A stretch of 64,000 nucleotides of DNA from Spirochaetota bacterium (GTDB lineage: Bacteria; Spirochaetota; JAAYUW01; JAOAHJ01), in the NCBI GenBank assembly GCA_026415295.1, contig JAOAHJ010000028.1, forward strand, positions 2,964 to 66,963, given 5' to 3'. This document shows, piece after piece, positions 3,128 through 49,045 of the stretch. Position 1 is the first letter of the stretch. Every line of letters starts with the position of its first letter. The position numbers were made by a program, and so were the translations under genes. The notes under the pieces were generated by a model, which saw only the letters and a list, made by a program, of their open reading frames with translations, searched no databases and was not told the origin of the DNA.

Positions 3128-4174
3128 ATGAATGATAAAAAAAATAGTAAATTTAGCTATAAAGATTCTGGTGTTGATATTAATGAAGGTTATAAAGCTG
3201 TTGAATTATATAAAAAATTTGCAAGAGAAACATTTGATAAGTATGTTTCTCTAGATATAGGTTCCTTTGGTTCACTTTATAAATTACCTCAGAATGAAGA
3301 TTTTCTCCTTGTTTCCTCAACAGATGGTGTTGGAACTAAATTAGAATTAGCTTTTAAGCTTAAAAAATATGATACTGTTGGAATTGATTGTGTTGCAATG
3401 TGTGTAAATGATATAATCTGTCTTGGTGCAAAACCCCTATTTTTTCTTGATTATCTTGCATGCGGAAAACTTGATCATAAAATAGCTGGAGATCTTGTTA
3501 AAGGAATAGCTGAAGGTTGTAAAATAGCAGGCTGTTCTCTTATAGGTGGAGAGACTGCAGAAATGCCTGGTTTTTATGAAGAAGGCAAGTATGATATAGC
3601 TGGATTCACAGTTGGAATTGTTCATAAAAAAGACTTAATTGATGGATCAAAAATCAAAGAGGGAGATATATTAATAAGTATTGAATCTTCAGGTTTTCAT
3701 AGCAATGGATACTCTCTTTTAAGAAAAATAATAAATGACAATAAGATTGATTTAAATTCTAATTTTGGAGAATCAACAATTGGACTACAGTTACTAAAAC
3801 CAACATTTATTTATGTTAATCCTATTTTAGAATGCTTAAGAAATAAAATTGAAATAAAAGGTATAGCAAATATAACTGGGGGTGGTTTTTATGAAAATAT
3901 TCCCAGAATGTTTAAAGATAATTTTACAGCAATAATAGAGAAAGATAAGATCAAGCTTCCAAAAATTATGGAGTACTTTAAATCCTTTGGTATAAGTGAT
4001 AAAGAAATGTTTAATACCTTCAATTGTGGAACTGGTATGGTTTTATGTGTTAAAGATAAAAATGATTTTGAAAATATAAGAAAAATATTTGAAAAATACA
4101 ATTTATCAACCTCTATAATTGGTAAAGTTGCAAAAGGAGAAAAAGAAACCAAAATTATTGGCATAGATTTGTGA
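3128..4174 (+). CDS. purM: Phosphoribosylformylglycinamidine cyclo-ligase (AIR synthetase)
   Basis: Conserved PurM motifs (DGVGTK, GGETAEMPG), 348 aa, operon position after purF. Confidence 0.85.
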   Translation: MNDKKNSKFSYKDSGVDINEGYKAVELYKKFARETFDKYVSLDIGSFGSLYKLPQNEDFLLVSSTDGVGTKLELAFKLKKYDTVGIDCVAMCVNDIICLGAKPLFFLDYLACGKLDHKIAGDLVKGIAEGCKIAGCSLIGGETAEMPGFYEEGKYDIAGFTVGIVHKKDLIDGSKIKEGDILISIESSGFHSNGYSLLRKIINDNKIDLNSNFGESTIGLQLLKPTFIYVNPILECLRNKIEIKGIANITGGGFYENIPRMFKDNFTAIIEKDKIKLPKIMEYFKSFGISDKEMFNTFNCGTGMVLCVKDKNDFENIRKIFEKYNLSTSIIGKVAKGEKETKIIGIDL

Positions 4175-4240
4175 AAAAATAATATATAAATGATATAATT
4201 AATTTTTAATGTAATAATTTTTTATTTAATAAAATTTTTT

Positions 4241-4867
4241 ATGAATATCATAGTTTTAGTTTCAGGAAATGGCACAAACCTTCAAGCTATAATTGATGCT
4301 ATAAATAGTGGTTATTTAATAAATACTTACATAAAAGCTGTTATATCAGATAGAGAAGCCTATGCTTTAGAAAGAGCTAAAAAGTTTAACATCCCTAATC
4401 TACTAATAGACAGAAAAATATATAAACAAAATCTTTCAAATAAAATTTTACAAAGTGTAAAAGAGCTTGAAAGTAAATTCAATTTCAAAACAGACCTTAT
4501 AGTTTTAGCAGGTTTTTTATCAATATTAAACTCTGAATTTATAAACAGTTATAAAAATAGAATTATTAATATTCACCCTGCTCTTTTACCTTCATTTGGT
4601 GGGAAAGGAATGTATGGTAAAAAAGTTTTTGAAGAAGTATTAAATTCAGGTGTGAAATTTACTGGAGTAACTATACATATTGTTGATGAAGGAACAGACA
4701 CAGGTCCAATTATTGCTCAAGAAGTAATAAAAATAGATGAAAATGAAAGTTTGGAAAGTTTAGAAGAAAAAACTCACAAAATAGAACACAAAATTTTAAT
4801 TGATGTACTAAAAAATTTTTCTGAAAAAAAACTAATAATTGAAAATAAAAAAACAAGATGGAATTAA
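4241..4867 (+). CDS. purN: Phosphoribosylglycinamide formyltransferase
   Basis: VLVSGNGTNLQAI N-terminus, formyltransferase fold, 208 aa. Confidence 0.8.
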   Translation: MNIIVLVSGNGTNLQAIIDAINSGYLINTYIKAVISDREAYALERAKKFNIPNLLIDRKIYKQNLSNKILQSVKELESKFNFKTDLIVLAGFLSILNSEFINSYKNRIINIHPALLPSFGGKGMYGKKVFEEVLNSGVKFTGVTIHIVDEGTDTGPIIAQEVIKIDENESLESLEEKTHKIEHKILIDVLKNFSEKKLIIENKKTRWN

Positions 4868-4936
4868 AATAACTAAATGTATGTATAAATAAATAAAAAT
4901 TATAAAATTAATAAAATTGTTAATTTGTAAAACAAA

Positions 4937-4966
4937 TTGACAATACCATAAATAGAAAAATATAAA
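4937..4966 (+). promoter_or_regulatory. Candidate sigma70-type promoter (TTGACA-N17-ATATAA) overlapping a 12-bp-arm palindrome ATTGTTAATTTG-TAAAA-CAAATTGACAAT (4916..4944)
   Basis: Read directly from sequence; located ~50 nt upstream of the 5015 CDS. The AT-rich background makes chance matches likely. Confidence 0.3.
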
Positions 4967-5014
4967 AATAACAAATTACTATCTTTATAAAAATAAGAAA
5001 GCATTTTTAATAAA

Positions 5015-5935
5015 ATGGTAAAAAATCAAAACAATCATTTAATAACTCCCTATTATTTTTTAAAACACTTTTATAGTGATGAACAGATTAAAAATTTTAT
5101 TCATATATTTAATAACAAAACAATTTTTTTAATCTACAGTCCTTTATTTAAACAATTTATTAATTATTTCTTATCTTCAAGTTCTTCAGAAAGTAATATA
5201 AAAATTAAAATTGTTGAAAAACTTAATAAAATTTATTCTTTAAATGACAATATATTTTTTGCCCCCTATAAACTTGGTAGTTCTGCTACTCTTGAAATAC
5301 TAGAAATCTCTTCCTTTTATTGTTTTAAAAATATTATCCAAATTGGTTATGCTGGGTCATTTTTTGAAGAAATCAATATTGGTGATATTTTTATATCAGA
5401 AGGAGCATTTACAGATTCTATAATTCCAAATGTATATACAAATAAACCTTTAAATTTTGATGGTTTAAATGAATTTTATTTTATTGATAACTTTTATGAG
5501 ACTGATAAAGAATTAACAGAAAAAATTTTAAATGTATTAGGAAATATAAATATAACTATTAATAAATTAAATAATACAAATTTGAACAATTTAAAAACTT
5601 TTGAATTTACTAATTCAACAAATCAAAATAATAAAGAAAATATAAATATTTTTAAAGGAAAACACTTTTCAACAGAATTTATCTTTAAAGAAACTTTAGA
5701 AAAATTTCATTTATTAGAAAAATGTGGTGCAAAAACAGTTGAAATGGAGGGAGCTACATTTTTTGGCTTCTGTAAATCAAAAAATATTAAAACAACATCT
5801 ATTTACATAATTTCTGACAAGATAGAATTCAATAAAAAGAATTGGTTACAAGCATGGGATTCAAATAAATTAAAAGAATCATTTTATTTTATAATTAAAA
5901 AACTATTGATCTATAATTTAAATCTTTCTATCTGA
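5015..5935 (+). CDS. Phosphorylase family-1 (PNP/UDP/MTA-nucleosidase-like) protein with large Asn-rich insertion
   Basis: C-terminal VEMEGA motif characteristic of the PNP_UDP_1 family; glycine-rich IQIGYAGS segment; ~100-aa N/K-rich insertion between. Confidence 0.4.
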
Positions 5936-9139: not shown

Positions 9140-10693
9140 ATGAATAAAAAATTAGAAAATATATATGAAAACAATAAACTAAATCTTTCAAATAGTTTAA
9201 AAGCACAAGATGATATATCAATACTAATAAATAATATTATTAGCTATATTAATAAAACTGAATTCTATATAGTTGGAAAAATTAAAATATGCAAATTAAT
9301 CTCTTCTTCTATAACAAATGGTAACATTAATAATTATTTTAATATCAAAGAAGCTGGAATAGGTTTTCATCTTTTTGATAAAAATGGTTTTTCTATTTTT
9401 GTCTCAACTTTTGATTTAAATATGAATAAGATAAAAGCTTTAATAAATAATGGTATGAATTTACTTAAAAAATATAATAAAATTTGCAATGATCCTAATA
9501 AAAATATTTTTGAATTACAACCTATTAAAGCAAGATTAGAAAAAAAAAGCAATGTTGATATAGATAAAATTAATTCAGAAAAATTTCAGAGGGACTTCTT
9601 AGAATTCTATAATAATTTACCTAAAGAGAATGATATTTCATACTCCATAGGAATCTCACTAAAAAATATTGATAATTTTATTTTTAGATCAGATGGAACA
9701 GATATATATTATAATGAATTTTATTCAATTATTACAGGAGATCTTTCAATATCTTCGAATTCAAAAGCTTCTATTTATTATAAAATTCATAAATTTGGAT
9801 TAGATATCCTAAATGATAAAGACAAACTTGAAGAATTTTTAAGTCTAACCTCAAAAAATAATAAACTTGTAAAAGATTTATCTTTAGCAGAAAATGTTGA
9901 TGGTGGATCTTATAATCTTATTATAGATTATGCCCTAGCTAAAGGCTTAGCACATGAAGCATTTGGCCATGCTGCTGAAACTGATTTTGTTGAAAACTCA
10001 ATACTTTCAAAAAATGGAATTTTTAATAAAGGTTTAAAAGTAGGCAAATCTTTTTTAAATATAATAGATGAATCTTTCGATAATGAATGGGCTTATACTC
10101 CATTTTCAGATTATGGGCTTATTAGAAAAAAAGTCTATATTGTCAAAGATGGAATATTAAATAATGGACTTTCGGATGTTTTTTCTTATAAAAAAGCTCA
10201 AACTGAATTAACAGGAGCTGAAAGGTCAGAAAGATATTCAGACATACCAATTCCAAGAATGTCAAATATAAGAATAGAACTTAATCCTGACTTTGTTTAC
10301 AAAGATAATATTTTCAATAAAAACTTTAATGAAATTAAGCCATCAGAAATTTTAAATTATGTTCTAGAAAATAAACTTTTTAAAAATGACAAAGATACAT
10401 TACTGCTATCTGGTTATAGTGGAGGTCAAGTAGACACTGTTAAAGGAAATTTTGTTTTTAATTGTCAAGCCATTTACAAAGTTGAAAATAACAAAATAAA
10501 GATATTTAAACCATCAGTTTTTTCCGGAATAACTCTAAAAACACTAGATTCTATAAGTTTTGGTATAGGGAATTTAAAACTTGATGCCATTGGAAGATGT
10601 GGTAAATCAGGACAGAGCGTTAATTCTTCAGGTGGATCACATTACTTTTTAGGAATAAATTACAATGAGAATATAATAATTGGAGGAAAATAA
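9140..10693 (+). CDS. tldD: TldD family metalloprotease (peptidase U62)
   Basis: HEAFGHAAE (HExxxH) zinc motif and overall TldD/PmbA architecture; N-terminal low-complexity insertion. Confidence 0.65.
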   Translation: MNKKLENIYENNKLNLSNSLKAQDDISILINNIISYINKTEFYIVGKIKICKLISSSITNGNINNYFNIKEAGIGFHLFDKNGFSIFVSTFDLNMNKIKALINNGMNLLKKYNKICNDPNKNIFELQPIKARLEKKSNVDIDKINSEKFQRDFLEFYNNLPKENDISYSIGISLKNIDNFIFRSDGTDIYYNEFYSIITGDLSISSNSKASIYYKIHKFGLDILNDKDKLEEFLSLTSKNNKLVKDLSLAENVDGGSYNLIIDYALAKGLAHEAFGHAAETDFVENSILSKNGIFNKGLKVGKSFLNIIDESFDNEWAYTPFSDYGLIRKKVYIVKDGILNNGLSDVFSYKKAQTELTGAERSERYSDIPIPRMSNIRIELNPDFVYKDNIFNKNFNEIKPSEILNYVLENKLFKNDKDTLLLSGYSGGQVDTVKGNFVFNCQAIYKVENNKIKIFKPSVFSGITLKTLDSISFGIGNLKLDAIGRCGKSGQSVNSSGGSHYFLGINYNENIIIGGK

Positions 10694-12095
10694 AAATAAT
10701 AATTTTTTAAGGATAAAAAATATGATAATTTTTAATAATGAAAGAGAAGCAGAAGTAATAAAAGATATAGATAAAAATTTTTTAGAAGACCTTATTAATA
10801 TTAATCAAGTAAATAGTTTATCAAACAAAATTAAAAGTATTATTAAAAATACAAAAGAAGTTAAACAGTTCATGTTTAACATTTCTAAAGAAACATCTTA
10901 TTATTTTGGAATAAACAATAATAATATTGGAAATGTATATAGTCCAATAAGTATAAGTGAAGATTTTTCTGGATCATTGACAATTATCTGGAAAGATAAT
11001 AAGATATCTCTTGTTGATCTTGATTATGAAAAAATAGTAAATTTTGAAAACTATCTTAATTTCTTTAGAGATATCTCTTATGAAGAAAAATTTGTACCAG
11101 AAATATTAAAAGATCAGAATTTTAGAGATTATAAATCATTCGACAATCTTTTGATAGAAAATATTAAAAATAATAATTTTGAATTGTTTGAAAAAGTATT
11201 TGAAGTGTTTAATTTTTTTAAAGAAAATGGAGTTAAATTTTCTAATGTAGATTTAAGTTATTCTATTTACTATGAAACTTTTTGTAACTCAGAGGATCTA
11301 TATTTTGGAAAAATTTACTCGGAAAATGGTTTATCATATGATTTTGATTCACTTCTTTATTATTCAAACGCAAAGCATAAAAAACTTGAAAAAAGTGATC
11401 TTGATGAATTTATTAATTTTTTTTCCTTGTTTTATAATAAACTAGTTCCTATTGAATACAAAAAAATAAATACAAATAATGTAATATTTTTATCTCCTGT
11501 ATTTTATAGTCTTCTAAATTTTTATTTTGGATATAATTTGGATGGAAAAAATATTTATTATAATAAATCTTTTTTTAATATGAAAGATTTTGAAAATAAT
11601 AAAGAAATATCAAATAAGAAATTTGATCTTTATTTTGATCCATTTTTAGATTATGAACTTTCAAGTTATGCTATCTCAACTGAAGGATTAACTCCACAAA
11701 AAACAACTTTTATAAAGGATGGAAAACTTACTCAACCATCTATAACTTTGAAAAGTTCAAAAATGCTAAATATGCCTCCAAATAATGGTTTTGGAAATGG
11801 TAAATTAATATTAGAACCTTTTGATAATAATTTGGTAGAATTTATTAATGAAATTGATGACTGTTATATTATATTTGATATATTAGGATTACATACACAA
11901 GAACCAATATCTGGAAACTTTTCACTTTCTGTTTCTACCGGCCTTCTAAAAGAAAAAGGCAATTTTGTTGGATTAATTAAAGGAAATATAAACGGGAATA
12001 TTTTTGATATTTTTAGAAGTGGAAATTTTAAAATATTAAAAAACAACTACAATAATAAATACTCTTTTTATACTAAATTAAACATTTTAAATTAA
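10680..12095 (+). CDS. pmbA: PmbA/TldE family protein (TldD partner)
   Basis: 14-nt overlap with tldD; PmbA/TldD fold-like C-terminal region (GNFSLS...GLIKGNINGNIFDI); no HExxxH, as expected for TldE. Confidence 0.5.
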   Translation: MEENKNNNFLRIKNMIIFNNEREAEVIKDIDKNFLEDLININQVNSLSNKIKSIIKNTKEVKQFMFNISKETSYYFGINNNNIGNVYSPISISEDFSGSLTIIWKDNKISLVDLDYEKIVNFENYLNFFRDISYEEKFVPEILKDQNFRDYKSFDNLLIENIKNNNFELFEKVFEVFNFFKENGVKFSNVDLSYSIYYETFCNSEDLYFGKIYSENGLSYDFDSLLYYSNAKHKKLEKSDLDEFINFFSLFYNKLVPIEYKKINTNNVIFLSPVFYSLLNFYFGYNLDGKNIYYNKSFFNMKDFENNKEISNKKFDLYFDPFLDYELSSYAISTEGLTPQKTTFIKDGKLTQPSITLKSSKMLNMPPNNGFGNGKLILEPFDNNLVEFINEIDDCYIIFDILGLHTQEPISGNFSLSVSTGLLKEKGNFVGLIKGNINGNIFDIFRSGNFKILKNNYNNKYSFYTKLNILN

Positions 12096-16900: not shown

Positions 16901-19495
16901 ATGGAAGACCAAATAAGAAATAATCTTTTTGAATCAAAATATATTGTAAAAGGGATAACATGTTCATCATGCATTAATATCATTACCAAAGTTCTAAAAA
17001 ACAATATAGATGGTATTAATGAAGTTGATATAAATCCACTTTCAAATGAATTAAGAATAAAGTCAAACAAAACTATAAATTTTATTACAATAAAAAACCT
17101 ACTAAATAATTTAGGATATGATCTTTACGAAAATAATAGCTCAATTCTTTCTGATGGTAATTCATTTGATAAAAATAATCTAGCTCAATATAATAAAAAA
17201 AATGAAGTAAAAAATATAAAATCATTTTTAAATGAAAAAAATAATCTTTTAATCTCTATTATTTTTTCAATTCCTCTATTTATTAAAATGTTCTTTATGA
17301 GCAACCATTTTAATTTAAATTTAATAAATCATTATATAGGTGTTCATAAAATTCTATTTCTCAATTTTGATATTTTTATTGATATTATCTTTTCATTTAT
17401 AGTTATTTTTATTTCAGGTTATACAACATTAAGAAAAGCTTTTTTTTCTTTTAAAAATTTTATTTTTACAATGGACACATTAATAGCTATAAGTGCTATC
17501 TCATCTTTCTTAACAGTTCTTATAAGTCCCTTTGTGAGAATAAGTAATTTCTCAATGATTGGTGCTATGATTATTCTAATTAATAATATAGGAAATTTTA
17601 TAAAAAATAGATCAATAAAAAAAACTAATAGATTACTTGAAGAAATTTCAAAACTCTCTGTAAAAGAAGCTCATTTATTATTAGAAGAAAAAAATCATGA
17701 GTTAATTAAAGATCAATCTATTAATAAGTTAAATATTTATAACAATAGTCTTTTAAATAATATAAACTATAATACAATTGATGTTCCACTAGAAAGACTA
17801 AGACCTGGTGATATTGTACTTGTAAAACCAGGTGAAAAAATACCCTCTGATGGTACAATTATTTATGGAGAATCTTTAATTGATCTATCAATAATTTCAG
17901 GTGAATCTGAACCTGTACTCAAAAAAGAAGGAGATTTTATTGTTGGAGGCGCTATAAATAAGTCTAGTTATTTAAAAATTAAAATTAATAAAATTGGAGA
18001 GGAAACCTATATAGAGAACATTAAAAAGTTAATAGAGAATGCCCAACTTAAAAAAGTCAAAATACAACTTTTTGCTGATAAGATTACAAGCTTCTTTGTT
18101 CCTATAATTTTTATACTTTCTATTTTTTCTTTTTTTATTAATTATTTCTTTTACGATAAATTAGCAACAATTTTTTTAAACTTATCTTCAAAAATTAATT
18201 TATTAAAATTTTTAGAAAATACTTTTTTAGTTGAAATTTTTTTAAAATATCCAAAAATAGGTTTTTTCGAAAAATTTTCATTGGGCCTTTATTCTCTAAT
18301 CTCTACTTTAGTTATAGCTTGTCCATGTGCTTTGGGCCTTGCTACTCCAACAGCTATTATGACTGGCTTAGGAGTTGCATATAAAAACAAAATATTAATA
18401 AAGAATGGTGACTTTTTTGAAAAAATAAATAAAATTGATACTATAATATTTGATAAAACTGGAACTATAATATCTGAAATTCCTTCCATAGAAAAGCATA
18501 TATTTTTGAAAAACAAGAAAATAGATAGATCAAAATTATTTTATAGAGAAGAAAAAATAGTTAATAATTTACTTTTAAATGAGGACTTTGTATTAAAAAT
18601 CTCAAAAGAAATTGAAAATTTATCAAATCATCCTATTTCTAAATCAATTACAAGTTATATTAATAATCTTTTTAAAATAAAAAATATAAATAAAAAATTT
18701 TTAAAATTTAAAATAAAAATAGATAAATTTGAATATTTTACTGGAAAAGGAATTAAATCATACATTAGCATTATTAAAGAAGATGATAAAACAAAAGAAA
18801 ATAAAATTATTGCTGAAAATATATTAATTTTATCCGGAAATTATAATTTTATTAAAGAAAATGGAATTATAATAAATTTTGAAAAGGAAAGTTTTAACAA
18901 AAACTCTAATTTTTTTACTATTGATGGTAATATTTTTTTAATATATTTAATAAATGAAAATATAAATGAGCATAACTTAAAATCTGTTAAAATTATAAAT
19001 AAAAAAAATTATGATATATATTTACTTTCTGGTGATAAAAAAGAAAGAACGGAAGAATTAGCAAATAAATTAAAAATAAATAATTATTTTTATGAACTAC
19101 TGCCTGAAGATAAACTTAAAATAATCAATGAACTACAAAAAAAGGGTAAAAAAATTATGATGGTAGGAGATGGAATAAATGATGCTCCTGCATTAAAAGC
19201 TTCAGATATTGGTGTAGCTATAGGTACTGGAACAGATCTTGCTCTTGAAAGTGGAGATATAATATTACTTTCAGGAAAAATTTTTGATTTGTACAAAGCA
19301 ATAATAATAGGAAGAAAAACATTTAATAAAATAAAAATAAATTTATTCTGGGCTTTCTTTTATAATATTATTATGATTCCTTTAGCAATTCTTGGAATTT
19401 TAAATCCAATTTTAGCAGAAATTGCAATGGCATTAAGTTCTATATCTGTGGTAATTAATTCATTATTACTAAAAAGAATAAAAGTTGAATTTTAA
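16901..19495 (+). CDS. copA: Heavy-metal (Cu+-type, P1B) translocating P-type ATPase
   Basis: N-terminal HMA domain (GITCSSC), TM CPC motif (ACPCALGLATP), DKTGT phosphorylation site, GDGINDAP hinge; several long N/K-rich insertions. Confidence 0.75.
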   Translation: MEDQIRNNLFESKYIVKGITCSSCINIITKVLKNNIDGINEVDINPLSNELRIKSNKTINFITIKNLLNNLGYDLYENNSSILSDGNSFDKNNLAQYNKKNEVKNIKSFLNEKNNLLISIIFSIPLFIKMFFMSNHFNLNLINHYIGVHKILFLNFDIFIDIIFSFIVIFISGYTTLRKAFFSFKNFIFTMDTLIAISAISSFLTVLISPFVRISNFSMIGAMIILINNIGNFIKNRSIKKTNRLLEEISKLSVKEAHLLLEEKNHELIKDQSINKLNIYNNSLLNNINYNTIDVPLERLRPGDIVLVKPGEKIPSDGTIIYGESLIDLSIISGESEPVLKKEGDFIVGGAINKSSYLKIKINKIGEETYIENIKKLIENAQLKKVKIQLFADKITSFFVPIIFILSIFSFFINYFFYDKLATIFLNLSSKINLLKFLENTFLVEIFLKYPKIGFFEKFSLGLYSLISTLVIACPCALGLATPTAIMTGLGVAYKNKILIKNGDFFEKINKIDTIIFDKTGTIISEIPSIEKHIFLKNKKIDRSKLFYREEKIVNNLLLNEDFVLKISKEIENLSNHPISKSITSYINNLFKIKNINKKFLKFKIKIDKFEYFTGKGIKSYISIIKEDDKTKENKIIAENILILSGNYNFIKENGIIINFEKESFNKNSNFFTIDGNIFLIYLINENINEHNLKSVKIINKKNYDIYLLSGDKKERTEELANKLKINNYFYELLPEDKLKIINELQKKGKKIMMVGDGINDAPALKASDIGVAIGTGTDLALESGDIILLSGKIFDLYKAIIIGRKTFNKIKINLFWAFFYNIIMIPLAILGILNPILAEIAMALSSISVVINSLLLKRIKVEF

Positions 19496-19737: not shown

Positions 19738-20385
19738 ATGAGAAAAAATAAACTAATTAAAAAGTTTTCTAATCTTTTTTTAATTTTATTAATAATTTTA
19801 ATTTTTTTCTCGTTAAATTGCTTTGCAAAATTCAATATTGGATTTACTTCAAATTTTATCATTCCACCTCCATTTACAAATATAAGTCCTTCTTTTATTA
19901 ATTCTTTACTTGTTGATGGTGGCTTTAAATTATGTTATATAATGAATGATTTTTATATTTTAGGTTTTTATTTAGATTTATCAACAGGAATTATTTCAAT
20001 TCTTAAAACATTTGAAACAATAGGTTGGATTGTTTTTTTTCCAATTTCAATTGGTCTAAAAATTCCATTTCCCGAGATACCTCCAACTATAGGTATTATT
20101 AATCTTGGCATTGTAACTGGTATAAATATTGTAAACAAACCTAACTTCAAACTTGATTTTATATCCAAATTTGGCTTTGGATCTATTGAAATTCAAGCAG
20201 AAAAAAATATTCAGGCATCTTTCTACTCAATTAAACCTGAATTAAATTTAAAATATCCTTTAGCAAAATTTTTTGGATTCGGTTTATCAAATTCAAATGC
20301 TTTTCTTTTTTTAAAAGAACCAGTAAACAATAAAAAAATTATTTATTATTCATCTTTAGGTTTATATATTTATTTTGAATTTTAA
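19738..20385 (+). CDS. Small secreted protein, possible outer-membrane beta-barrel
   Basis: Signal peptide; Gly/aromatic-rich alternating pattern; C-terminus ...LGLYIYFEF ends in Phe (OMP beta-signal-like). Confidence 0.3.
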   Translation: MRKNKLIKKFSNLFLILLIILIFFSLNCFAKFNIGFTSNFIIPPPFTNISPSFINSLLVDGGFKLCYIMNDFYILGFYLDLSTGIISILKTFETIGWIVFFPISIGLKIPFPEIPPTIGIINLGIVTGINIVNKPNFKLDFISKFGFGSIEIQAEKNIQASFYSIKPELNLKYPLAKFFGFGLSNSNAFLFLKEPVNNKKIIYYSSLGLYIYFEF

Positions 20386-20679
20386 ATATTTATTTTATTT
20401 TACAATTTCTATTTTCAATATTAATTTTTTAGTTATTTATTATTAGTTTAACTTTAAAATTATATTTTTATTTTATAATTTCTTATATTTTAATTTTTTA
20501 TTTGGTTTAGTTTTATACTTTTTTCAATACACTGCTTTTATTATTTCAATTTTATAAATATAATATTATTTTATATTTTATTTTTTCTAATCTATATATA
20601 GAGTTTAAATAAATTTTTTCTTGACAATTTTTTTATTTTTTATATTTATTTTTATAGAAAGAGGGATAGAAAGGATTAT

Positions 20680-20752
20680 GGGCGATTAGCTCAGCTGGGA
20701 GAGCATCTGCCTTACAAGCAGAGGGTCGTAGGTTCAAGCCCTGCATCGCCCA
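20680..20752 (+). tRNA. tRNA-Val (anticodon TAC)
   Basis: Cloverleaf folded by hand: acceptor GGGCGAT/ATCGCCC, D-stem GCTC/GAGC, anticodon stem TCTGC/GCAGA with loop CTTACAA, T-loop TTCAAGC; CCA not encoded. Confidence 0.85.
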
Positions 20753-20756
20753 ATCT

Positions 20757-20832
20757 GCGGGAATAGCTCAGTTGGTAGAGCGCGACCTTGCCAAGGTCGA
20801 TGTCGCGGGTTCGAGCCCCGTTTCCCGCTCCA
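20757..20832 (+). tRNA. tRNA-Gly (anticodon GCC)
   Basis: Acceptor GCGGGAA/TTCCCGC, anticodon stem CGACC/GGTCG with loop TTGCCAA, T-loop TTCGAGC, discriminator U, CCA encoded. 4 nt after tRNA-Val. Confidence 0.85.
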
Positions 20833-20929: not shown

Positions 20930-20963
20930 ATATAGCTACCTTAATTAAAAAAGGTAGCTATAT
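20930..20963. terminator. Perfect 13-bp inverted repeat ATATAGCTACCTT-(8 nt)-AAGGTAGCTATAT, likely bidirectional terminator between tRNA pair (+) and rubrerythrin (-)
   Basis: Seen directly; flanked by A-run upstream and T-rich sequence downstream. Confidence 0.45.
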
Positions 20964-21127: not shown

Positions 21128-21706
21128 TTACCAGTTTTCACATAAAATTTCAAAGAAGCTTTGAGGATGAGCACAAGCTGGGCAACTTTGTGGTGCTTCT
21201 TCTCCTTCATAAATAAAACCACAATTATTACATTTCCACCAAACTTTTTTATCCTTTTTAAAGACACTTCTATTTTCTATATTTTTAAGTAAAGCTCTAT
21301 ATCTTTTTTCATGTTGCTTCTCAACAATTGCAATGTTCCTAAAAACTTGAGCAATCTCTGGAAAACCTTCCTTTTCAGCTTCATCAGCAAAATTTTGATA
21401 CATAGTTGTCCATTCATAGTTCTCTCCATTAGCAGCAGCTAATAAATTTTCAGGAGTTGTTCCAATTTTCCCTGCTGGATAAGCTGCATTAATTTCAACT
21501 TCACCTCCCTCTAAAAACTTAAAAAATCTCTTAGCATGTTCTTTTTCATTTAAAGCTGTTTCTTCAAAAATCATTGCAATTTGAATATATCCCTCTTTTC
21601 TTGCAACTGATGCAAAATAATCATATCTATTCCTTGCTTGTGATTCACCTGCAAAAGCAGCCAATAAATTTTTTTCAGTTTTTGTTCCTTTAACAGATTT
21701 AGCCAT
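21128..21706 (-). CDS. rbr: Rubrerythrin
   Basis: Diiron ferritin-like N-domain (ExxH motifs) plus C-terminal rubredoxin-like CNNCG...CPACAHP domain, 192 aa. Confidence 0.85.
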
Positions 21707-21886: not shown

Positions 21887-22141
21887 TTACAAATTAATTT
21901 CAATCAATTTTGCTTTAACACCTTCAAGTAAATTTAATTTTCTTTCAAGCTCTAAATGTTTTTCTTTTTCTCCAACAAGCTCAAGGAAAATAGTCCCATT
22001 ATCGGAACATTTATCTAGAACCTCATCATGTATACCAAGTCTAATCTTTATTAAACAACCCCAACCTGTTAAAATTTCCTGAACTTTAATAGCATTATTT
22101 TTCCTTTTATCAATAATTATAATCATAAATCTTTTTTCCAT
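21887..22141 (-). CDS. TM1266-family small ACT-like protein (annotated elsewhere as putative iron-only hydrogenase system regulator)
   Basis: 84 aa; MEKRFMIIIIDKR...VQEILTGWGCLIKIRLGI...IFLELVG...KLNLLEGVKAKLIEI closely follows my recollection of the TM1266 family pattern. No hydrogenase genes nearby. Confidence 0.45.
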   Translation of the reverse strand: MEKRFMIIIIDKRKNNAIKVQEILTGWGCLIKIRLGIHDEVLDKCSDNGTIFLELVGEKEKHLELERKLNLLEGVKAKLIEINL

Positions 22142-22201
22142 AATATTTCCTGCTTTATGATTTATTTAACTTAAAAGTCTATTAAAAAAATAAACGAAAA
22201 T

Positions 22202-22582
22202 TTAAACTTTCCACAACCCATGTAAATTACAGAATTCTCTAACATATAATATATCTGATCTATTAACATTAAAAATAGCTTCAGGTTTATCTCCAGGGTT
22301 TAATTCTTTTCTTAAAATATAACCATCTTTTGTAACAACTTCAATAAATTGGATCCAGTGAGAATCTTCCATTGGATGAGGAACAGAGCCAACTTTAACT
22401 AATATTTTATTGCTAGTATCCTCAATTACAGGTAAGTGTTTTTCTCCAGCACCTTCTCTATTTTTCTCATCCATTAAAGTCATCTCTTGCCCACAACAAA
22501 CCAAATCTCCTTCACCTTCAATAAAAACTTCAACTACATTACCACAAATTTTGCATTTATAAATTCCCATTTTAGTTGCCAT
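22202..22582 (-). CDS. dfx: Desulfoferrodoxin (2Fe superoxide reductase)
   Basis: N-terminal desulforedoxin CKICGN...CCG plus centre-II His/Cys ligands (HLPVIE, HPMEDSHW, CNLHG); 126 aa. Confidence 0.85.
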   Translation of the reverse strand: MATKMGIYKCKICGNVVEVFIEGEGDLVCCGQEMTLMDEKNREGAGEKHLPVIEDTSNKILVKVGSVPHPMEDSHWIQFIEVVTKDGYILRKELNPGDKPEAIFNVNRSDILYVREFCNLHGLWKV

Positions 22583-22725: not shown

Positions 22726-23247
22726 TTAATCTATATAACCTTTATCAAAAATATTCTGTGGATATTCTCTTTTACCCATTTCTTTATCAAGATAAAGTAA
22801 ACCACTATTTGAATTAGAAATCATTTTTAACTTTTGCAAAATAGTATCCACTGACAATTCTTCTTCAACCTGTTCTTTAACATACCACTTTAAGAAATCC
22901 AAAGTAGCGTAATCTTTTTCATCTTCTGAAATTTTTACTAATTCCCATATTCTTGAAGTTATATATTTTTCATGTTTTAAAGCTTTTTCAAAAGCATCTA
23001 AAATTGATTCAAATTTCGTTTCAGGTTTTTTAATTTCTAAAAGTTCAGGTTTTTTCCCTCTTTCGACAAGATAATTAAAAAACTTCATTGCATGCATAAT
23101 CTCTTCTTGAACTTGAGCTTTCATCCAATGTGCAAACCCTTGTAAATTTATAGATTCAAAATAAGATACAATAGAAAGGTAAAGATATGCTGAATAAAAC
23201 TCCTCATTTACCTGTCTATTTAACTCATTAAAAATTCTATCAGTCAT
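22726..23247 (-). CDS. ftn: Non-haem ferritin
   Basis: Ferritin-like diiron ligands (EEFYSAYLYL, QEEIMHA), 173 aa. Confidence 0.75.
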   Translation of the reverse strand: MTDRIFNELNRQVNEEFYSAYLYLSIVSYFESINLQGFAHWMKAQVQEEIMHAMKFFNYLVERGKKPELLEIKKPETKFESILDAFEKALKHEKYITSRIWELVKISEDEKDYATLDFLKWYVKEQVEEELSVDTILQKLKMISNSNSGLLYLDKEMGKREYPQNIFDKGYID

Positions 23248-23386: not shown

Positions 23387-24547
23387 TTAAAGTTTATTAC
23401 TAATATCATCTTTAATTTTATTAAGATCTTCATCTGAAGGAACATATTGTATTTTATATGATCCTATAATATTAAGACCCATTTCATTAATAATTTTTTC
23501 AATATCTTTTATACTTTCACCACCCCAACCATAAGAACCAAAAACAAATATTTTTCTATTTTTAGGATTTAACCCTTTAAAATATGTTATAAATGCTGAT
23601 ACTGTAGGCAACATGTTTTTATTTAAAGTTGGGGAACCTATAAAAATATATTCAGAATCCAATATTTCAGTAATAACATCAGAGATATGATTTTCTTGTA
23701 ATGGCATATATTTAAAAGATATTTTTTTATCATCTAATACACTTTTAATTGCATCCGCTATCATTTTTGTTGAATTCCACATTGTATCATAAACTATAAC
23801 AGCCTTTCTTTCAGTTAAGTTTTTGCTCCACTTATCATAATTCGAAATAAATTCTTTAATAAACTTTTTAATTATTAACCCATGACTCGGACAGATAATT
23901 TCAATTTCTAACTTTTGAGCTTCAGAAAGCTCCTTTTGAACTTGATCACCATATGGTAAAACTATATTGGCATAATATTTTTTTGCCTCATAAAAAAGAA
24001 TATCTCTATCATATTCTTCATCAAATCTCTCAAAAGAAGCAATGTGCTGACCAAAGCCATCATTAGAAAATAAGATTTTTTCTTCTTGGCAATATGTAAC
24101 CATATTATCTGGCCAATGAACCATTGGGGTTAATAGAAAAACTAGATTTCTTTTCCCAATATTTAATTTATCTCCACTTTTAACCTCTATATAATTAAAT
24201 TCTTTTTTATAATGAGCTTTCAGTCCTTTTAAACCATTAGGAGAAGTATAAATTTTTAAATTAGGATTTAATTCTAATATTTTAGGTAGTGAACCTGAAT
24301 GATCCATTTCAACATGATTAGAGATATAGTAATCAATTTTTGAAATAGGAACGATTTTTTCAATTCTTTCTTTGAATTCATCAAATAAATAATGCTTAAC
24401 ATTATCAATTAAAACAATCTTTTCATCTAATATTAAATAAGAATTATAACTTGAACCTCTTTGAGTCAAATAACCATGAAAATTTCTTAAATTCCAATCA
24501 ACAGCACCAACCCAATAAATATCATCTTTAATTTTAATAGCATCCAT
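23387..24547 (-). CDS. fprA: Flavodiiron protein (rubredoxin:oxygen/NO oxidoreductase, FprA/ROO type)
   Basis: Metallo-beta-lactamase-like diiron motif HVEMDHSG followed by flavodoxin-like domain; 386 aa. Confidence 0.8.
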   Translation of the reverse strand: MDAIKIKDDIYWVGAVDWNLRNFHGYLTQRGSSYNSYLILDEKIVLIDNVKHYLFDEFKERIEKIVPISKIDYYISNHVEMDHSGSLPKILELNPNLKIYTSPNGLKGLKAHYKKEFNYIEVKSGDKLNIGKRNLVFLLTPMVHWPDNMVTYCQEEKILFSNDGFGQHIASFERFDEEYDRDILFYEAKKYYANIVLPYGDQVQKELSEAQKLEIEIICPSHGLIIKKFIKEFISNYDKWSKNLTERKAVIVYDTMWNSTKMIADAIKSVLDDKKISFKYMPLQENHISDVITEILDSEYIFIGSPTLNKNMLPTVSAFITYFKGLNPKNRKIFVFGSYGWGGESIKDIEKIINEMGLNIIGSYKIQYVPSDEDLNKIKDDISNKL

Positions 24548-24709: not shown

Positions 24710-24847
24710 TTACTCCTTCTCAAATGCATCTTTTTCGGCACCACAAACTGGACAAACCCAATCATCAGGCAACTTTTCAAAAGGAATACTATCATTTTCT
24801 GAAGGATCATAAATATAACCACACACTGTACAAACCCATCTTTCCAT
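24710..24847 (-). CDS. rd: Rubredoxin (45 aa) - not in supplied ORF track
   Basis: Manual translation of minus strand: [45 protein letters not shown]; two CxxCG knuckles and conserved W/Y/F/P positions of rubredoxins. Confidence 0.8.
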
Positions 24848-24956: not shown

Positions 24957-25373
24957 TTAATTTATACAATTTTTACAAACCCCTTCAAAAATAACTATAT
25001 TACTAATTACCTTATTACCATCTATAAAATCTATTTTAAATTTATCAACAACTAACTTATCTTCAATATCATATAATTTATCACATTTTATACATTTAAA
25101 ATGTAAATGGGGAATATAATTTAAATCATATACTGTTTTATCTCCATTAATAAATGAAATAGCTAAACCTTTTTCTATAAATATTTTCAAGGTATTATAA
25201 ATCGTAGTTTTTGATAAAGTCGGGATCTGTTTTTCAAGTTCATTAAAAATTTCTTCAATTGTAGGATGATTTCTTTTTAAAATAAAATATTTTAATATAG
25301 CTAATCTTTGTACTGAAGGTTTAATTTCGTATTTCTGCAATAAACTATACTCAAAAATTGCCTGTGTATCCAT
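24957..25373 (-). CDS. perR: Fur-family transcriptional regulator, probably peroxide-responsive (PerR-like)
   Basis: Winged-helix N-domain, HLHFKCIKC and C-terminal CKNC metal sites; located at head of oxidative-stress cluster. Confidence 0.65.
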   Translation of the reverse strand: MDTQAIFEYSLLQKYEIKPSVQRLAILKYFILKRNHPTIEEIFNELEKQIPTLSKTTIYNTLKIFIEKGLAISFINGDKTVYDLNYIPHLHFKCIKCDKLYDIEDKLVVDKFKIDFIDGNKVISNIVIFEGVCKNCIN

Positions 25374-25753
25374 ATGCTTCCCTTTTTTAGTTGTATTAAA
25401 AAACCTATCTATAATTTCAAAAAATCAATACAAATTAAAAATTATCTAATTTATTTTAATAATATCTTTGATTTTAATATTTTTATTTTTAAATATATTA
25501 ATTATTTTCATTTAATAAATTAATTTACATAATATCTTAATATTATAATTAAAATATAATATAGTTTTTTTAAAATTCAAAATTTTATTTTTTTTAATTG
25601 TAAAAAATTTGAAAATTTATTATTTTTTTTTATATTTTTTAAAGATTAATAATTAAATTACTAAATAAATTAAAATAAAAATTCTATTACTTTTATATTA
25701 AGTTAATTATAGTTTGTAGATGGAAAATTTAATAATTAAATATTAATTTGGTT

Positions 25754-26602
25754 ATGATAATTGAAATTTTTTTAAAAATAAAAAATCCTCTTTATCAAGC
25801 TTTATTTGGTGGGTTTTTAACATGGTTTTTAACTCTTTTTGGAGCTATTTTTATTTTTTTTAATAAAAAACCTTCTAAAACAATATTTAGTTCAATGCTT
25901 TCACTTGCTGGCGGCATTATGCTTGCAGCTAGTTTCTGGTCACTTCTTTTGCCGGCAAAAAATATAGCGGAAGATCTAGGGATAAACCCATTTTTAAATA
26001 TTACTTTAGGTCTTTTATCTGGTTCTTTATTTATTTTTTTACTCGATAGGTTAATCCCTCATAAACATATTCAAGAAAATCAAATTAAAATATCTCAAGA
26101 AAATTCAGATACTGAAATAGAAGGAATAAAAACAAATTTAAAAAAAACTTATTTATTTATTCTTGCTGTTGTTTTACATAATATTCCAGAAGGTTTAGCA
26201 GTAGGTGTTGCATTTGGTGCATTGATAAACAATATTAATGATATAAATATTTTGGTAAGTGCTATAACATTAACTATAGGTATTGGGTTACAAAATATAC
26301 CTGAAGGTTTAGCTATTGCCCTTCCTCTTTATGCTAATGGATTTTCAAAAAGAAAAAGTTTTTTTTATGGACAACTTTCTGCAATAGTGGAACCTGTTTC
26401 AGCTCTATGTGGTGTAATTTTTGTTTCAATTTTTAAAAATATTCTACCCTTTTCTATGTCATTCGCATCTGGAGCTATGATTTATATAATAATAGAAGAA
26501 GTAATTCCAGAATTTCAAAAAAATAAAACCAATGATATTGCTACACTTTTTTTCATTGCAGGCTTTATAATAATGACTATTTTAGATATAAGTCTTGGAT
26601 AA
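25754..26602 (+). CDS. zupT: ZIP-family zinc/iron transporter
   Basis: HNIPEGLAVG and QNIPEGLAIAL signature helices. ORF track start at 25748 is TTG; first ATG is 25754. Confidence 0.7.
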   Translation: MIIEIFLKIKNPLYQALFGGFLTWFLTLFGAIFIFFNKKPSKTIFSSMLSLAGGIMLAASFWSLLLPAKNIAEDLGINPFLNITLGLLSGSLFIFLLDRLIPHKHIQENQIKISQENSDTEIEGIKTNLKKTYLFILAVVLHNIPEGLAVGVAFGALINNINDINILVSAITLTIGIGLQNIPEGLAIALPLYANGFSKRKSFFYGQLSAIVEPVSALCGVIFVSIFKNILPFSMSFASGAMIYIIIEEVIPEFQKNKTNDIATLFFIAGFIIMTILDISLG

Positions 26603-42189: not shown

Positions 42190-43320
42190 TTATTTATTTA
42201 ACTTATTTTTTTCAATCACATTAATTAATCCTAAAACAATATTATAATTTACAAAATTTTTATCAATCTGCTTTAAAAAATAATAACTATTTTTAAAATC
42301 TGGTGGGTTTTTATAAAAATAAGAGTACCCAAGAATATAAAAAAAATAATTTTTAAACCTACTATTTGAAATAACATTTAAATAATCCTTACTAAATTCA
42401 ACTATTTTTTGAAACTCGTTTTTAATAAAATAAACTCTTAATATTATAATTAAAAATTTATCAAGATCTTCTTCATCAAAATTATTATTATAGATAAAAT
42501 TTAATGCTTCCTCAAAGTTTGATAGAGATACAAATTCATTTTGAGCTAAAATATGAATCTTTGCAAGCATATATGATGAATAAAAAAATATTTTCCCTTC
42601 AAAATATTGAATATTCTGTAATTTAATAGATTGTTCATAACTTATATTTTTTTCAATCTTTTTAAAATCCTTTTCTAGCTTTTTATAAGAATAAATCTTA
42701 TCTTTAAAATTATTAAAATAATCTTTTAGCAAAGTAAAATAAGAGGAACTTAAGGAGAAGTTCCCAGTCAAATAATAATAAATACCAAGATAAAATAAAT
42801 AAGAAATATTTAAATTTTCAATATCTAAAGAGGTGTTTAAATTATTTATTTCTGAATCTTTTAGAGATAAAAATATATTATTATTAAAAAAATAAAAAAT
42901 TCTATTTGTAAAATAGTTTTTAAAATATTGCGAATTTTCAGAAATAGGACCTAGATTCACTTCTTTATTTATATTTATAGAATCCAAAAGTTTAAAATTT
43001 AGACTATATTTTATAACAATATTTAAATCCCTTACATTGAATATTATATTTGAATTGCCATATTTCTTTATTTTAATTACAAATATAGTAGAATCATATG
43101 AATCAATAACCTTTTTTATTTCAAAATAATTTGAATCCAAAACATCAACAGTTGCATTTAAATAATTAATAAAGATAAAAAACTCTTCATTTTCATTTTT
43201 ATAAAATTCAACATTTATATCATAATTTATAAAATTAGATTTATTTTGGGCAAGAAGATTAAAAGGCAAAAATATAAATAATACTTCTAGAACAATAATT
43301 ATAAATGTTTTGTAATTCAT
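42190..43320 (-). CDS. Hypothetical secreted protein, N/Y/F-rich (possible TPR-like C-terminal half)
   Basis: Signal peptide ...LLAQ; no catalytic motifs. Confidence 0.35.
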   Translation of the reverse strand: MNYKTFIIIVLEVLFIFLPFNLLAQNKSNFINYDINVEFYKNENEEFFIFINYLNATVDVLDSNYFEIKKVIDSYDSTIFVIKIKKYGNSNIIFNVRDLNIVIKYSLNFKLLDSININKEVNLGPISENSQYFKNYFTNRIFYFFNNNIFLSLKDSEINNLNTSLDIENLNISYLFYLGIYYYLTGNFSLSSSYFTLLKDYFNNFKDKIYSYKKLEKDFKKIEKNISYEQSIKLQNIQYFEGKIFFYSSYMLAKIHILAQNEFVSLSNFEEALNFIYNNNFDEEDLDKFLIIILRVYFIKNEFQKIVEFSKDYLNVISNSRFKNYFFYILGYSYFYKNPPDFKNSYYFLKQIDKNFVNYNIVLGLINVIEKNKLNK

Positions 43321-46546: not shown

Positions 46547-49045
46547 CTAATAAATTTTTTCTATAATATCTTCAAAACTTAAATCTGTAAAACTTATAGA
46601 TTGTATACCAAATGATATAACAAACTTAAAATAATAACTATTTTTTAATGAATCATAAAAATAATTACCACTTAAATTTAAATATCCAAAAAAATCATGA
46701 AAATCTCTTTTAATTCCAATTGAAATATAATTTAATTTAAAATAAGAAATAATTCTATCATTAATATTAAAAAAATTAAATGATCTAAATAAATCAATCA
46801 TCAGATCAATTAAATTATTATAAGTATAAAATTTTTCATTAGAAGAGTTTATTGAAACATTCATATTAAATTTATCTTGAAAATTAACATTTAATACAAA
46901 AAGATTTGTAAATTTTGTATCTAGTTTGTCAATTAAATTTTGATAAAATCCTACTGTATTAGAAATATTTACTTTTAAATTATAAAAATTAAAATTATAT
47001 AAATTTATTCTTAATAAATAATTATTATAAATAAAAAGATTATAAAAAATTGAATATTCTCCATTATAAGAAAGATTAATCAATCTAGATGGATTAAAAA
47101 TCAAACTATATTTTATATTAGACACCCTTTTTAAATTAAAGGAAAATAAATTTTTTGTTTCACTATCATATAAATTTATAAAATTTGAAATATTTATAAT
47201 AATTAAATTATACAATAAATTTATATTTAAAGAATTATTAATTATTGAACTTTTCCATCCATTTTGATCTTCAATATAAAACATTTTTATATAGTTAGTA
47301 GTATAACTTGAGTTTAATTTAATAAAATCTAAATTTATTAAAAAATTAGATGATAAATTAAAATTATAATAACTATTTTTACTATTTATAGTGTTTGTTT
47401 TAAAATCAATCGAATCATTTAAACTTAAAGAATTTAAAATCGTTAAATTAATATTAAATAATTTTAGAATATCTAATTTAAAGTTAAATGGGATATTTAA
47501 ACTAGTCTGCTTGTAACCAGATATCTTTTCTTCATTGGAATTATAAATTTCACTATATGAAGTTACCCCAGAAATATTCGTTGAAAAATAAAAAAAGCTG
47601 AGATTAAAATTTATTAGATTCATATTTATATTAAAATTATATAAATTAAAAAAATATTTAAAATATTTAAGGTATCCTGGAGTATAAATATATAATGGAT
47701 CTTTAATATAAGAAGATAAACCCAATTTTCCTGAATAAGAAACATTAATAAATCTGGTATTTAATAAAATATTTAAAGATTCTTCAAAGTTTGAAGTATA
47801 AGAAGGAAAAATAGAAGGGTAATATGTTCTTGCAAAATCTCCTATTTCAAATTTTAGCTTTCTTGTTCTTGTTAAAAAATCATAAGAAAAATATGGGTCT
47901 CCATAGTATTCAATATTCATATTTATATTTAGAATATTAAATATAGGATATGACAAATTTATCTTTCCTCCATATCTAAATATTCTTAATGGTTTGTCAA
48001 TATTTAATAAATTATTATATGGAGTCCACAAATCATATTCAGAGTTATAAAAAAGATATTGGGAATATGCAATTCCAAACAAAACTTTTATATTATTTGT
48101 ATTATAGTAAAATCCACTAAAGATCCCCAATTTTTCATAAATATCTAGAAAAAAACTAAGATCATTCTCAACAATATAAGTATTATAAAAGGTAAACCCC
48201 TCTCTTTTTTGATAGACGAAACCAAATTCTCCTGGGTAACCTATTCCAAAATCGAAATTTATGAAAATAGGTAACCAAAAAATAGGTGAAGAACCAACGT
48301 AAACTTTGTTATCAAAACTTAAAATAAGATTTTCTGAATAGAAAAAATTACTGCTTAATATATAATAGTGCATATTGATATTGTTGCATGTAGAAATTTT
48401 CAAATTTTCCCCACTAAAAGTTTTTCCAACTAGTTTATTTACGACCTCCCCTATTATCCATATATTGTCTAACTTCCCTCTAACATTGTAAAAAAAACCA
48501 GTTAAAGTTTTTAAATTAAAAAAAACTCTTGAAGCGTAATATATTGATTTATCATCTATAAAAACTACGTTTCCTTCTGCTATTAATTGCTGATTTTTTA
48601 AATCAAAAGTTAATTTATCTGCTGAAATTACTTTATTCTCAAAATATATATAAATATTGCCTAGCAATTTTACAATTGTAATATTTTCTTTTTCATGGTT
48701 TTCTGTAAAAAGATAATCAGCTTTTTTAATAATTAATAAATATTTTTCCTCAATGAAAATAGATTCTATTTCAAGGTTAAATACTTTAAATAAATCTAAC
48801 CTTAAAGATTTTATGTCTTTAGATATATCTAGCCCGTACATTTTAGCAATGCTTAAAATGTCTTCAGCATCACTATATAATATAAAAGCAATCAATTGTT
48901 GTTCAGTAAAATAATTGAGAATTGAAGTTGCTTCTTGAGCATATAAAAAAGATGAAAATAAAATAAAACACAAAAAAAAATCAATAATAAAAAAAGTAAT
49001 GATTTGAATAGTAATTAAAATTTTTTTATTTTTTAATTTTAACAT
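46547..49045 (-). CDS. Large outer-membrane protein with OstA/LptD-like N-terminal domain and Y/F/N-rich beta-rich body
   Basis: Signal peptide; N-terminal segment LLGNIYIYFENKVISADKLTFDLKNQQLIAEGNVVFIDD...FNLKTLTG resembles the OstA_N beta-jellyroll repeat; remainder has alternating aromatic pattern. Confidence 0.4.
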   Translation of the reverse strand: MLKLKNKKILITIQIITFFIIDFFLCFILFSSFLYAQEATSILNYFTEQQLIAFILYSDAEDILSIAKMYGLDISKDIKSLRLDLFKVFNLEIESIFIEEKYLLIIKKADYLFTENHEKENITIVKLLGNIYIYFENKVISADKLTFDLKNQQLIAEGNVVFIDDKSIYYASRVFFNLKTLTGFFYNVRGKLDNIWIIGEVVNKLVGKTFSGENLKISTCNNINMHYYILSSNFFYSENLILSFDNKVYVGSSPIFWLPIFINFDFGIGYPGEFGFVYQKREGFTFYNTYIVENDLSFFLDIYEKLGIFSGFYYNTNNIKVLFGIAYSQYLFYNSEYDLWTPYNNLLNIDKPLRIFRYGGKINLSYPIFNILNINMNIEYYGDPYFSYDFLTRTRKLKFEIGDFARTYYPSIFPSYTSNFEESLNILLNTRFINVSYSGKLGLSSYIKDPLYIYTPGYLKYFKYFFNLYNFNINMNLINFNLSFFYFSTNISGVTSYSEIYNSNEEKISGYKQTSLNIPFNFKLDILKLFNINLTILNSLSLNDSIDFKTNTINSKNSYYNFNLSSNFLINLDFIKLNSSYTTNYIKMFYIEDQNGWKSSIINNSLNINLLYNLIIINISNFINLYDSETKNLFSFNLKRVSNIKYSLIFNPSRLINLSYNGEYSIFYNLFIYNNYLLRINLYNFNFYNLKVNISNTVGFYQNLIDKLDTKFTNLFVLNVNFQDKFNMNVSINSSNEKFYTYNNLIDLMIDLFRSFNFFNINDRIISYFKLNYISIGIKRDFHDFFGYLNLSGNYFYDSLKNSYYFKFVISFGIQSISFTDLSFEDIIEKIY

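Follow-up and report, generated by a model that had tools for sequence, protein, structure and literature searches.

The CPF_0552-family protein of a spirochaete oxidative-stress cluster: relation to TM1266, genomic contexts and a predicted inter-subunit site

What does a protein of only 84 amino acids (aa), which resembles a putative hydrogenase regulator, do inside a gene cluster for oxygen defence? The question is raised by an open reading frame (ORF) at 21887–22141 on the minus strand of a 64-kb stretch of contig JAOAHJ010000028.1 from a Spirochaetota bacterium; the whole stretch is called the window in this text. The ORF is placed between genes for rubrerythrin and desulfoferrodoxin, and an earlier note, made from the sequence alone, took its product for an ACT protein of the TM1266 family (TIGR03959). 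Oxidative-stress clusters of strict anaerobes, with PerR, rubrerythrin, superoxide reductase, flavodiiron protein and rubredoxin, are considered well inventoried. The results presented here suggest that such clusters in many phyla also include a small protein that is conserved but uncharacterised. According to its match to the family model, this protein is a member of the CPF_0552 family, a sister or paralogue of the TM1266 family, and its probable role is metal binding or the sensing of oxidants, at a predicted inter-subunit site.

Family and fold of the 84-aa protein

The ORF starts with ATG, and an AGGA ribosome-binding site is located 6 nucleotides (nt) 5' of the start, at 22148–22151. The product is 100% identical to the NCBI protein "hypothetical protein N3A58_06800 [Spirochaetes bacterium]" from a metagenome-assembled genome (MAG), and shares 57–70% identity with proteins of many phyla. 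On the strength of these two comparisons, the ORF is a real conserved gene under selection.

The NCBIfam model NF052672, "CPF_0552 family", was matched with 99.3 bits (cutoff 85), with residues 5–82 aligned on model positions 3–80 of 80, so the family of the protein is already catalogued. The TM1266 equivalog model TIGR03959 gave 28.3 bits (E-value 1.2e-6), far under its curated cutoff of 60.8, and the equivalog identity proposed in the earlier note was rejected. The match to PF21699 (TM1266-like) in Pfam is also too low, with 19.5 bits (E 9e-4) and a gathering score of 27; as many close homologues carry a precomputed PF21699 match, the protein is a borderline case of this Pfam family. What remains of the proposal is a remote relationship. 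A family profile of 118 sequences matches PDB entry 2NZC (TM1266) at E 1.7e-8, and the predicted model is superimposed on the same structure with a TM-score of 0.80–0.84. The resemblance is thus genuine remote homology and not an effect of composition, the possibility that the note itself had named as fatal to its claim.

For Thermovorax subterraneus, a protein with 46% identity to TM1266 was reported (PMC9679718). The CPF-type protein of the same organism has just 25% identity to TM1266. Since both kinds are present in this bacterium, the TM1266 and CPF_0552 families are paralogues able to coexist. The CPF_0552-like family is large, with 2,862 clusters at 90% identity (E <= 1e-5) and 518 representatives at 50% identity. 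Its members are often named "iron-only hydrogenase system regulator" in UniRef and "hypothetical" in NCBI for the same proteins. Literature searches on the function of CPF_0552/NF052672, PF21699 and TM1266 gave annotation-level mentions only.

The AlphaFold2 model of the protein has a mean predicted local distance difference test (pLDDT) score of 93.6 and a beta-alpha-beta-beta-alpha-beta topology. It is a single domain, with no ribbon-helix-helix DNA-binding domain attached. The top match in Foldseek was again 2NZC (E 4.4e-7, root-mean-square deviation 2.7 Å), followed by the C-terminal nickel-binding domains of NikR from H. pylori, E. coli and P. horikoshii with TM-scores of 0.72–0.79; ACT and PII-like domains were also among the structural matches. 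In Pfam, neither PF01842 (ACT) nor PF08753 (NikR C-terminal domain) was matched at E <= 0.01. The name "ACT protein" can therefore be kept at the level of fold only, and judging from the model, the nearest solved folds would be TM1266 and the NikR C-terminal domain.

Genomic contexts in the window and in other genomes

In the window, the gene is part of a run of genes on the minus strand, in the order PerR-like regulator, rubredoxin, flavodiiron protein (FprA), ferritin, desulfoferrodoxin (dfx), the 84-aa gene and rubrerythrin (rbr). Its placement between the last two, as the earlier note had it, is confirmed by curated models: desulfoferrodoxin (superoxide reductase), at 22202–22582, matched TIGR00320 with 174.3 bits (cutoff 146.9), and rubrerythrin, at 21128–21706, matched NF045767 with 312 bits (cutoff 200). 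The spacer between dfx and the 84-aa gene is 60 nt long (22142–22201, minus strand) and contains the AGGA Shine-Dalgarno sequence, and no terminator-like site was found there in the terminator scan. The spacer from the 84-aa gene to rbr, which lies downstream, has 180 nt. The sole strong terminator-like hairpin of the cluster, of intrinsic type with a 13-bp stem and a T run, is situated 3' of rbr (20930–20963, minus strand) and closes the cluster. The gene thus occupies an operon position, on the same strand inside the cluster and with no terminator between, and from the spacer, the ribosome-binding site and the lack of a terminator it is most likely co-transcribed with dfx.

For comparison, a scan of one genome per GTDB species yielded 312 confirmed homologues, and 80 of their loci were retained. 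The window, 79 of these 80 loci and one metagenome locus formed 81 non-redundant contexts. Neighbouring ORFs were labelled by phmmer with queries from the window and the loci and clustered without prior assumptions, and their identities were confirmed by Pfam. Oxidative-stress genes were found at most 5 kb away, and always on the same strand, in 24–25 of the 81 contexts (about 30%). They encode ferritin, desulfoferrodoxin or neelaredoxin, FprA, rubrerythrin, rubredoxin, PerR, the thiol peroxidases Tpx and AhpC/Prx, erythrin-like and Dps-like proteins, and Fpg, and the intergenic gaps are often only 10–30 nt. By their record names, these loci come from at least eight phylum-level lineages: Cloacimonadota, Neomarinimicrobiota, Victivallales, Melioribacteraceae, Brocadiia, Planctomycetia and Auribacterota, together with the spirochaete window. 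Two further examples come from cultured organisms. Thermosipho sp. 1063 has the order rubredoxin, FprA, CPF_0552 gene, with a gap of 13 nt, and in Aceticella autotrophica (L092) the gene is followed by flavin reductase and rubredoxin, adjoining an HMA P-type ATPase and SufC/SufBD. Oxidative-stress genes thin out with distance from the gene, with a density of 34 per 100 kb up to 1 kb away and about 1 per 100 kb at 5–10 kb. The immediate neighbour differs among loci (ferritin, Dfx, Prx, Rbr, FprA or Tpx), so the CPF_0552 gene looks like a general operon member and not like the partner of one enzyme.

A second, smaller group of nine contexts (about 11%) is associated with hydrogenase, as the gene adjoins HydF, HydG, HydA or a NuoE-like subunit. 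For hyd genes, the corresponding densities are 7.3 per 100 kb up to 1 kb away and about 1 at 5–10 kb. All nine proteins encoded next to hyd genes pass NF052672 (92.9–102.5 bits) and all fail TIGR03959. In a neighbour-joining tree, which is weakly resolved because the protein is short, the three classes of context intermix. Separate subfamilies for oxidative stress and for hydrogenase were considered and rejected, because of this intermixing and because all nine hyd-adjacent proteins pass the same model. The suggestion in the earlier note that the module is not specific to hydrogenase is supported by these counts, with the restriction that they apply to the CPF_0552 family, sister to the TM1266 family for which it was made.

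The third class comprises 48 of the 81 loci (about 59%). A Pfam tally of 84 immediate neighbours in these contexts revealed lineage-specific synteny only, for example with GH20 hexosaminidase and PFK, with DUF2975 and AlkD, or with amidohydrolase. It could be argued from these unrelated neighbours that a small mobile gene of housekeeping type just happens to sit between dfx and rbr, all the more as the long AT-rich spacers of the window allow separate promoters. We consider such a chance position very improbable, as the same-strand embedding in oxidative-stress operons recurs in the eight or more lineages listed above with varied gene orders, and oxidative-stress genes are about 30 times as dense close to the gene as in the flanks at 5–10 kb.

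Some further features of individual loci were recorded. An Fpg/MutM gene is present between PerR and FprA in the oxidative-stress operons of the Cloacimonadota-like loci L013, L014, L017 (6403–7209) and L018. In a Victivallales MAG (L024), FprA and the CPF_0552 gene are directly followed by a DUF2400 gene at 10251–11036, of which 14 nt are shared with the end of the CPF_0552 gene. In Caldanaerovirga acetigignens (L091), an AmmeMemoRadiSam-type pair at 3316–5745, consisting of a LigB/Memo/AMMECR1 fusion and a radical SAM protein, is oriented divergently to the CPF_0552 gene.

Conserved residues, the predicted site and its possible role

Conservation was counted over 144 representatives, any two of which have less than 50% identity. 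Arg13, Gln21, Gly28, Arg34, Gly36, His38 (132/144) and Gly49 are near-invariant. Of the representatives, 114 have Cys29, 117 have Cys45 and 107 have Cys29, His38 and Cys45 together; the two cysteines are almost always lost jointly. The family alignment yields the motif G-C29 ... R34-L-G-x-H38 ... C45, and all its residues occur in the 84-aa protein. The codons of the putative site extend over 22007–22105 on the minus strand, with Arg13 at 22103–22105, Cys29 at 22055–22057, His38 at 22028–22030 and Cys45 at 22007–22009. TM1266 has none of Cys29, His38 and Cys45.

The high-affinity nickel site of NikR is formed by His87, His89 and Cys95 of one chain and His76 of its neighbour. In the model of the 84-aa protein, Cys29 is just past helix 1, His38 is at the end of strand 2 and Cys45 is in the loop between strands 2 and 3; topologically, these predicted positions would be those of the NikR nickel site. 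The alignment of the family to NikR was used solely as a topological guide. When E. coli NikR alone (a query identical in sequence to 1Q5V) was compared in hhalign, only the C-terminal half was aligned, with a probability of 0.1%. With a NikR alignment of 17 sequences the probability was 5%, and His38 was placed on NikR His89 and Cys45 on NikR Cys95. This NikR alignment is shallow, as the search with the NikR C-terminal domain gave only enterobacterial sequences with at least 71% identity.

How the residues may come together is indicated by nine tandem-duplicated relatives of 165–182 aa (P0042, P0043, P0053, P0071, P0086, P0099, P0105, P0118 and P0161). In their N-terminal domain, Arg13, His38, Glu39 and Cys45 are kept and Cys29 is absent in 9/9. 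Their C-terminal domain keeps Gly28-Cys29 and has lost Cys45 in 9/9, His38 in 8/9 and Arg13 in 7/9. A fused pseudo-dimer needs to keep just one of the two symmetric sites of a homodimer, and complementary degeneration is then expected. The complementary loss therefore points to a site built between subunits, as in NikR, and the residue pattern indicates a composite site with Cys29 of one chain and Arg13, His38 and Cys45 of the other.

Starting from the family membership, the fold, the synteny and the residue pattern, we infer an oligomeric state, the binding of a metal, its identity and a physiological role as follows. The reading that we favour, tentatively and at somewhat less than an even chance, is that the CPF_0552 protein may be a stand-alone oligomeric metal-binding accessory protein of iron-based oxygen defence. 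It would form a homodimer or homotetramer of stand-alone subunits of about 85 residues. Each composite site, NikR-like in topology, would consist of Arg13, His38 and Cys45 of one subunit and Cys29 of its neighbour, and would bind a transition metal. Iron is the first guess because the enzymes of both contexts are all iron proteins, and because ferritin, ZIP importers and P-type ATPases recur nearby; for the enzymes of the cluster in the window, we take it as established that these families are non-haem-iron proteins. As the protein has no DNA-binding domain, it should act by metal or protein contacts. It might buffer, donate or sense metal for those non-haem-iron enzymes of oxygen defence whose genes are presumably co-transcribed with its own, and in other genomes it might render the same service to the iron-dependent maturation of [FeFe]-hydrogenase.

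A reversible thiol switch without any metal would use the same residues. Here, Cys29 and Cys45 of different subunits would form a disulfide (or a sulfenate would be formed) in response to peroxide or O2, the reactivity of the thiols would be adjusted by Arg13 and His38, and the oxidised or the reduced oligomer would signal to PerR, to a detoxification enzyme or to the hydrogenase maturases. The joint loss of Cys29 and Cys45 across the family would be in accordance with this, as would the retention of the cysteine pair in trans in the tandem proteins, which is what a pair shared between subunits should show. Thiol peroxidases (Tpx, AhpC/Prx, 1-Cys Prx) are encoded near the gene in many loci, and sensitivity to O2 is an obvious link from genes of oxygen defence to [FeFe]-hydrogenase maturation. 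Nevertheless, His38 goes together with Cys45 in the tandem proteins and exceeds both cysteines in conservation, as would rather be expected of a metal ligand; the site is predicted to fall where NikR binds nickel; and NCBIfam and Pfam scans of the 84-aa protein revealed no fold or motif like those of thioredoxin or peroxiredoxin. The thiol switch is a serious alternative, and we regard it as unlikely.

A more classical role would be that of an ACT-type sensor, the kind of function assumed for TM1266, in which a small metabolite bound at the beta1-alpha1 loop and the dimer interface (Arg13, Arg34) exerts allosteric control of a partner, and the cysteines and the histidine are a lineage-specific extra. 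The beta1-alpha1 loop is the usual ligand site of ACT domains, and Arg13 lies in this loop in the model. Arg13, Arg34 and Gly36 are common to TM1266 and near-invariant in the CPF_0552 family, and the Foldseek matches already mentioned include ACT and PII-like domains. This proposal, which we hold to be quite improbable, has no sequence match to PF01842 on its side and leaves unexplained both why Cys29, His38 and Cys45 are kept in about 75% of highly diverged members and why they are retained in a complementary way in the tandem proteins; moreover, the genomic contexts name no candidate ligand or partner.

Several points weigh against the metal-binding accessory protein preferred here. No experimental study of any member of the family was found in the literature. 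On sequence alone, the alignment to NikR is without statistical support (hhalign 5%), and in it NikR His87 and His76 correspond to Gly36 and Thr25 of the 84-aa protein, so that the His3Cys set of NikR is not reproduced. As TM1266 is linked to hydrogenase without having the triad, a function common to both families cannot depend on the site. The jointly lost cysteine pair fits a disulfide switch equally well, and the tandem proteins may share one fusion event, in which case 9/9 would not be nine independent observations. The loci with lineage-specific synteny only, 48 of 81, have no redox or metal theme. The varying immediate neighbour argues against a chaperone dedicated to one enzyme.

A broader proposal is rather doubtful in our estimation. 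In this version, the family would be a widespread, overlooked component of oxygen defence, a NikR-like oligomer whose inter-subunit Cys-His-Cys(+Arg) site would bind Fe(II) or Fe-S or sense its oxidation, and which would serve or gate superoxide reductase, rubrerythrin, flavodiiron protein or the HydG/HydF-dependent assembly of the H-cluster. If true, it would be a mechanistic bridge from protection against oxidative stress to [FeFe]-hydrogenase maturation and the first functional handle on the TM1266 superfamily. Assignment of a function through the candidate site could extend to about 2,900 sequence clusters, and could correct the UniRef label of hydrogenase regulator for proteins encoded in oxygen-defence operons. 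The recurrent membership of CPF_0552 genes in oxidative-stress operons of anaerobes, the dual association with hyd genes and the putative inter-subunit Cys-His-Cys site appear to be new.

The cluster in the window and comparison with known systems

The remaining genes of the cluster are all encoded on the minus strand. The Fur-family regulator at 24957–25373 matched PF01475 with 69 bits and is called PerR-like because its top NCBIfam matches are PerR models, all under their cutoffs. Rubredoxin is encoded at 24710–24847 (PF00301, 53 bits). The flavodiiron protein at 23387–24547, an FprA-type O2/NO reductase, has ODP/Lactamase_B and Flavodoxin_1 domains and reached 405 bits with NF008887, under the equivalog cutoff. 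Non-haem ferritin is encoded at 22726–23247 (PF00210, 146 bits).

Metal transport genes are located on both sides of the cluster. Divergent from the PerR-like gene, at 25748–26602 on the plus strand, is a ZIP/ZupT-type metal importer, recognised by a phmmer match to a ZIP cluster at E 3e-28 and by PF02535 on the representative of this cluster. In seven loci (the window, L015, L016, L040, L063, L070 and L077), an importer of this type is encoded no more than a few kb from the CPF_0552 gene. On the other side, just past the terminator that closes the cluster, the genes of tRNA-Val(TAC) and tRNA-Gly(GCC) were identified with Rfam at 20679–20832 on the opposite, plus strand. They were the only Rfam matches in the window, and no riboswitch was found in the cluster. 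Beyond the two tRNA genes, at 16901–19495 on the plus strand, a P1B-type heavy-metal ATPase with E1-E2_ATPase and HAD domains carries an N-terminal GITCSSC metal-binding motif. A 215-aa ORF with a hydrophobic N-terminus lies between the ATPase and the tRNA genes, at 19738–20385 (plus strand).

No HydA/E/F/G-like hydrogenase or maturase gene was found in the 64-kb window, either by Pfam on all ORFs of at least 250 aa or by phmmer with HydA, HydF, HydG and NuoE-like queries against all ORFs at E <= 1e-6, so the earlier statement that such genes are missing for at least 20 kb on either side is correct. Four large ORFs of 372–832 aa (46547–49045, 42190–43320, 60950–62068 and 62228–63856, all on the minus strand) had no Pfam match at E <= 1e-6. 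The G+C content of the window is 23%, unusually low for a genome labelled "Spirochaetes bacterium". At this composition, searches for AT-rich motifs such as promoters and Per boxes are uninformative: the B. subtilis Per-box consensus with at most two mismatches gave 23 matches (18.3 expected), and the promoter scan was no better than shuffled sequences, with 40 found and 43 expected.

Clusters of PerR type with rubrerythrin, desulfoferrodoxin, flavodiiron protein and rubredoxin have been described in clostridia and Desulfovibrio. The gene content of the window and its Fur-family regulator fit this known type. The difference is the 84-aa protein, which is not named as a component in the published descriptions that were found, and to our knowledge no small protein of CPF_0552 type is listed in the known descriptions of such clusters. 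The CPF_0552 family itself has its name only from a locus tag, and the 84-aa protein passes its cutoff over the full model.

The definition of TIGR03959, named "iron-only hydrogenase system putative regulator", presumably rests on co-location with hydE/hydF/hydG, and TM1266 has been annotated as "putative regulator" since its structure of 2006. With the TM1266 family (2NZC) the 84-aa protein shares the size, the beta-alpha-beta-beta-alpha-beta fold and Arg13, Arg34 and Gly36, and some CPF_0552 members likewise adjoin HydF, HydG or HydA. TM1266 differs in having Glu/Pro/Glu where CPF_0552 has Cys29/His38/Cys45, and its loop is 4 residues shorter; furthermore, the 84-aa protein is under the cutoffs of both TIGR03959 and PF21699 and has no hyd genes around it in the window. 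The protein may thus be described as a module of TM1266/NikR-C-like type that differs in its ligand set and its context. In comparison with the NikR C-terminal domain (PF08753; 1Q5Y, 2Y3Y), it has no ribbon-helix-helix domain and no significant sequence similarity. The two have the same fold (TM-score 0.72–0.79) and a putative inter-subunit site in common, made of the end of beta2, the beta2-beta3 loop and one residue of the neighbouring subunit, in which the predicted ligand set of CPF_0552 would be Cys2His with Arg13 nearby, whereas that of NikR is His3Cys.

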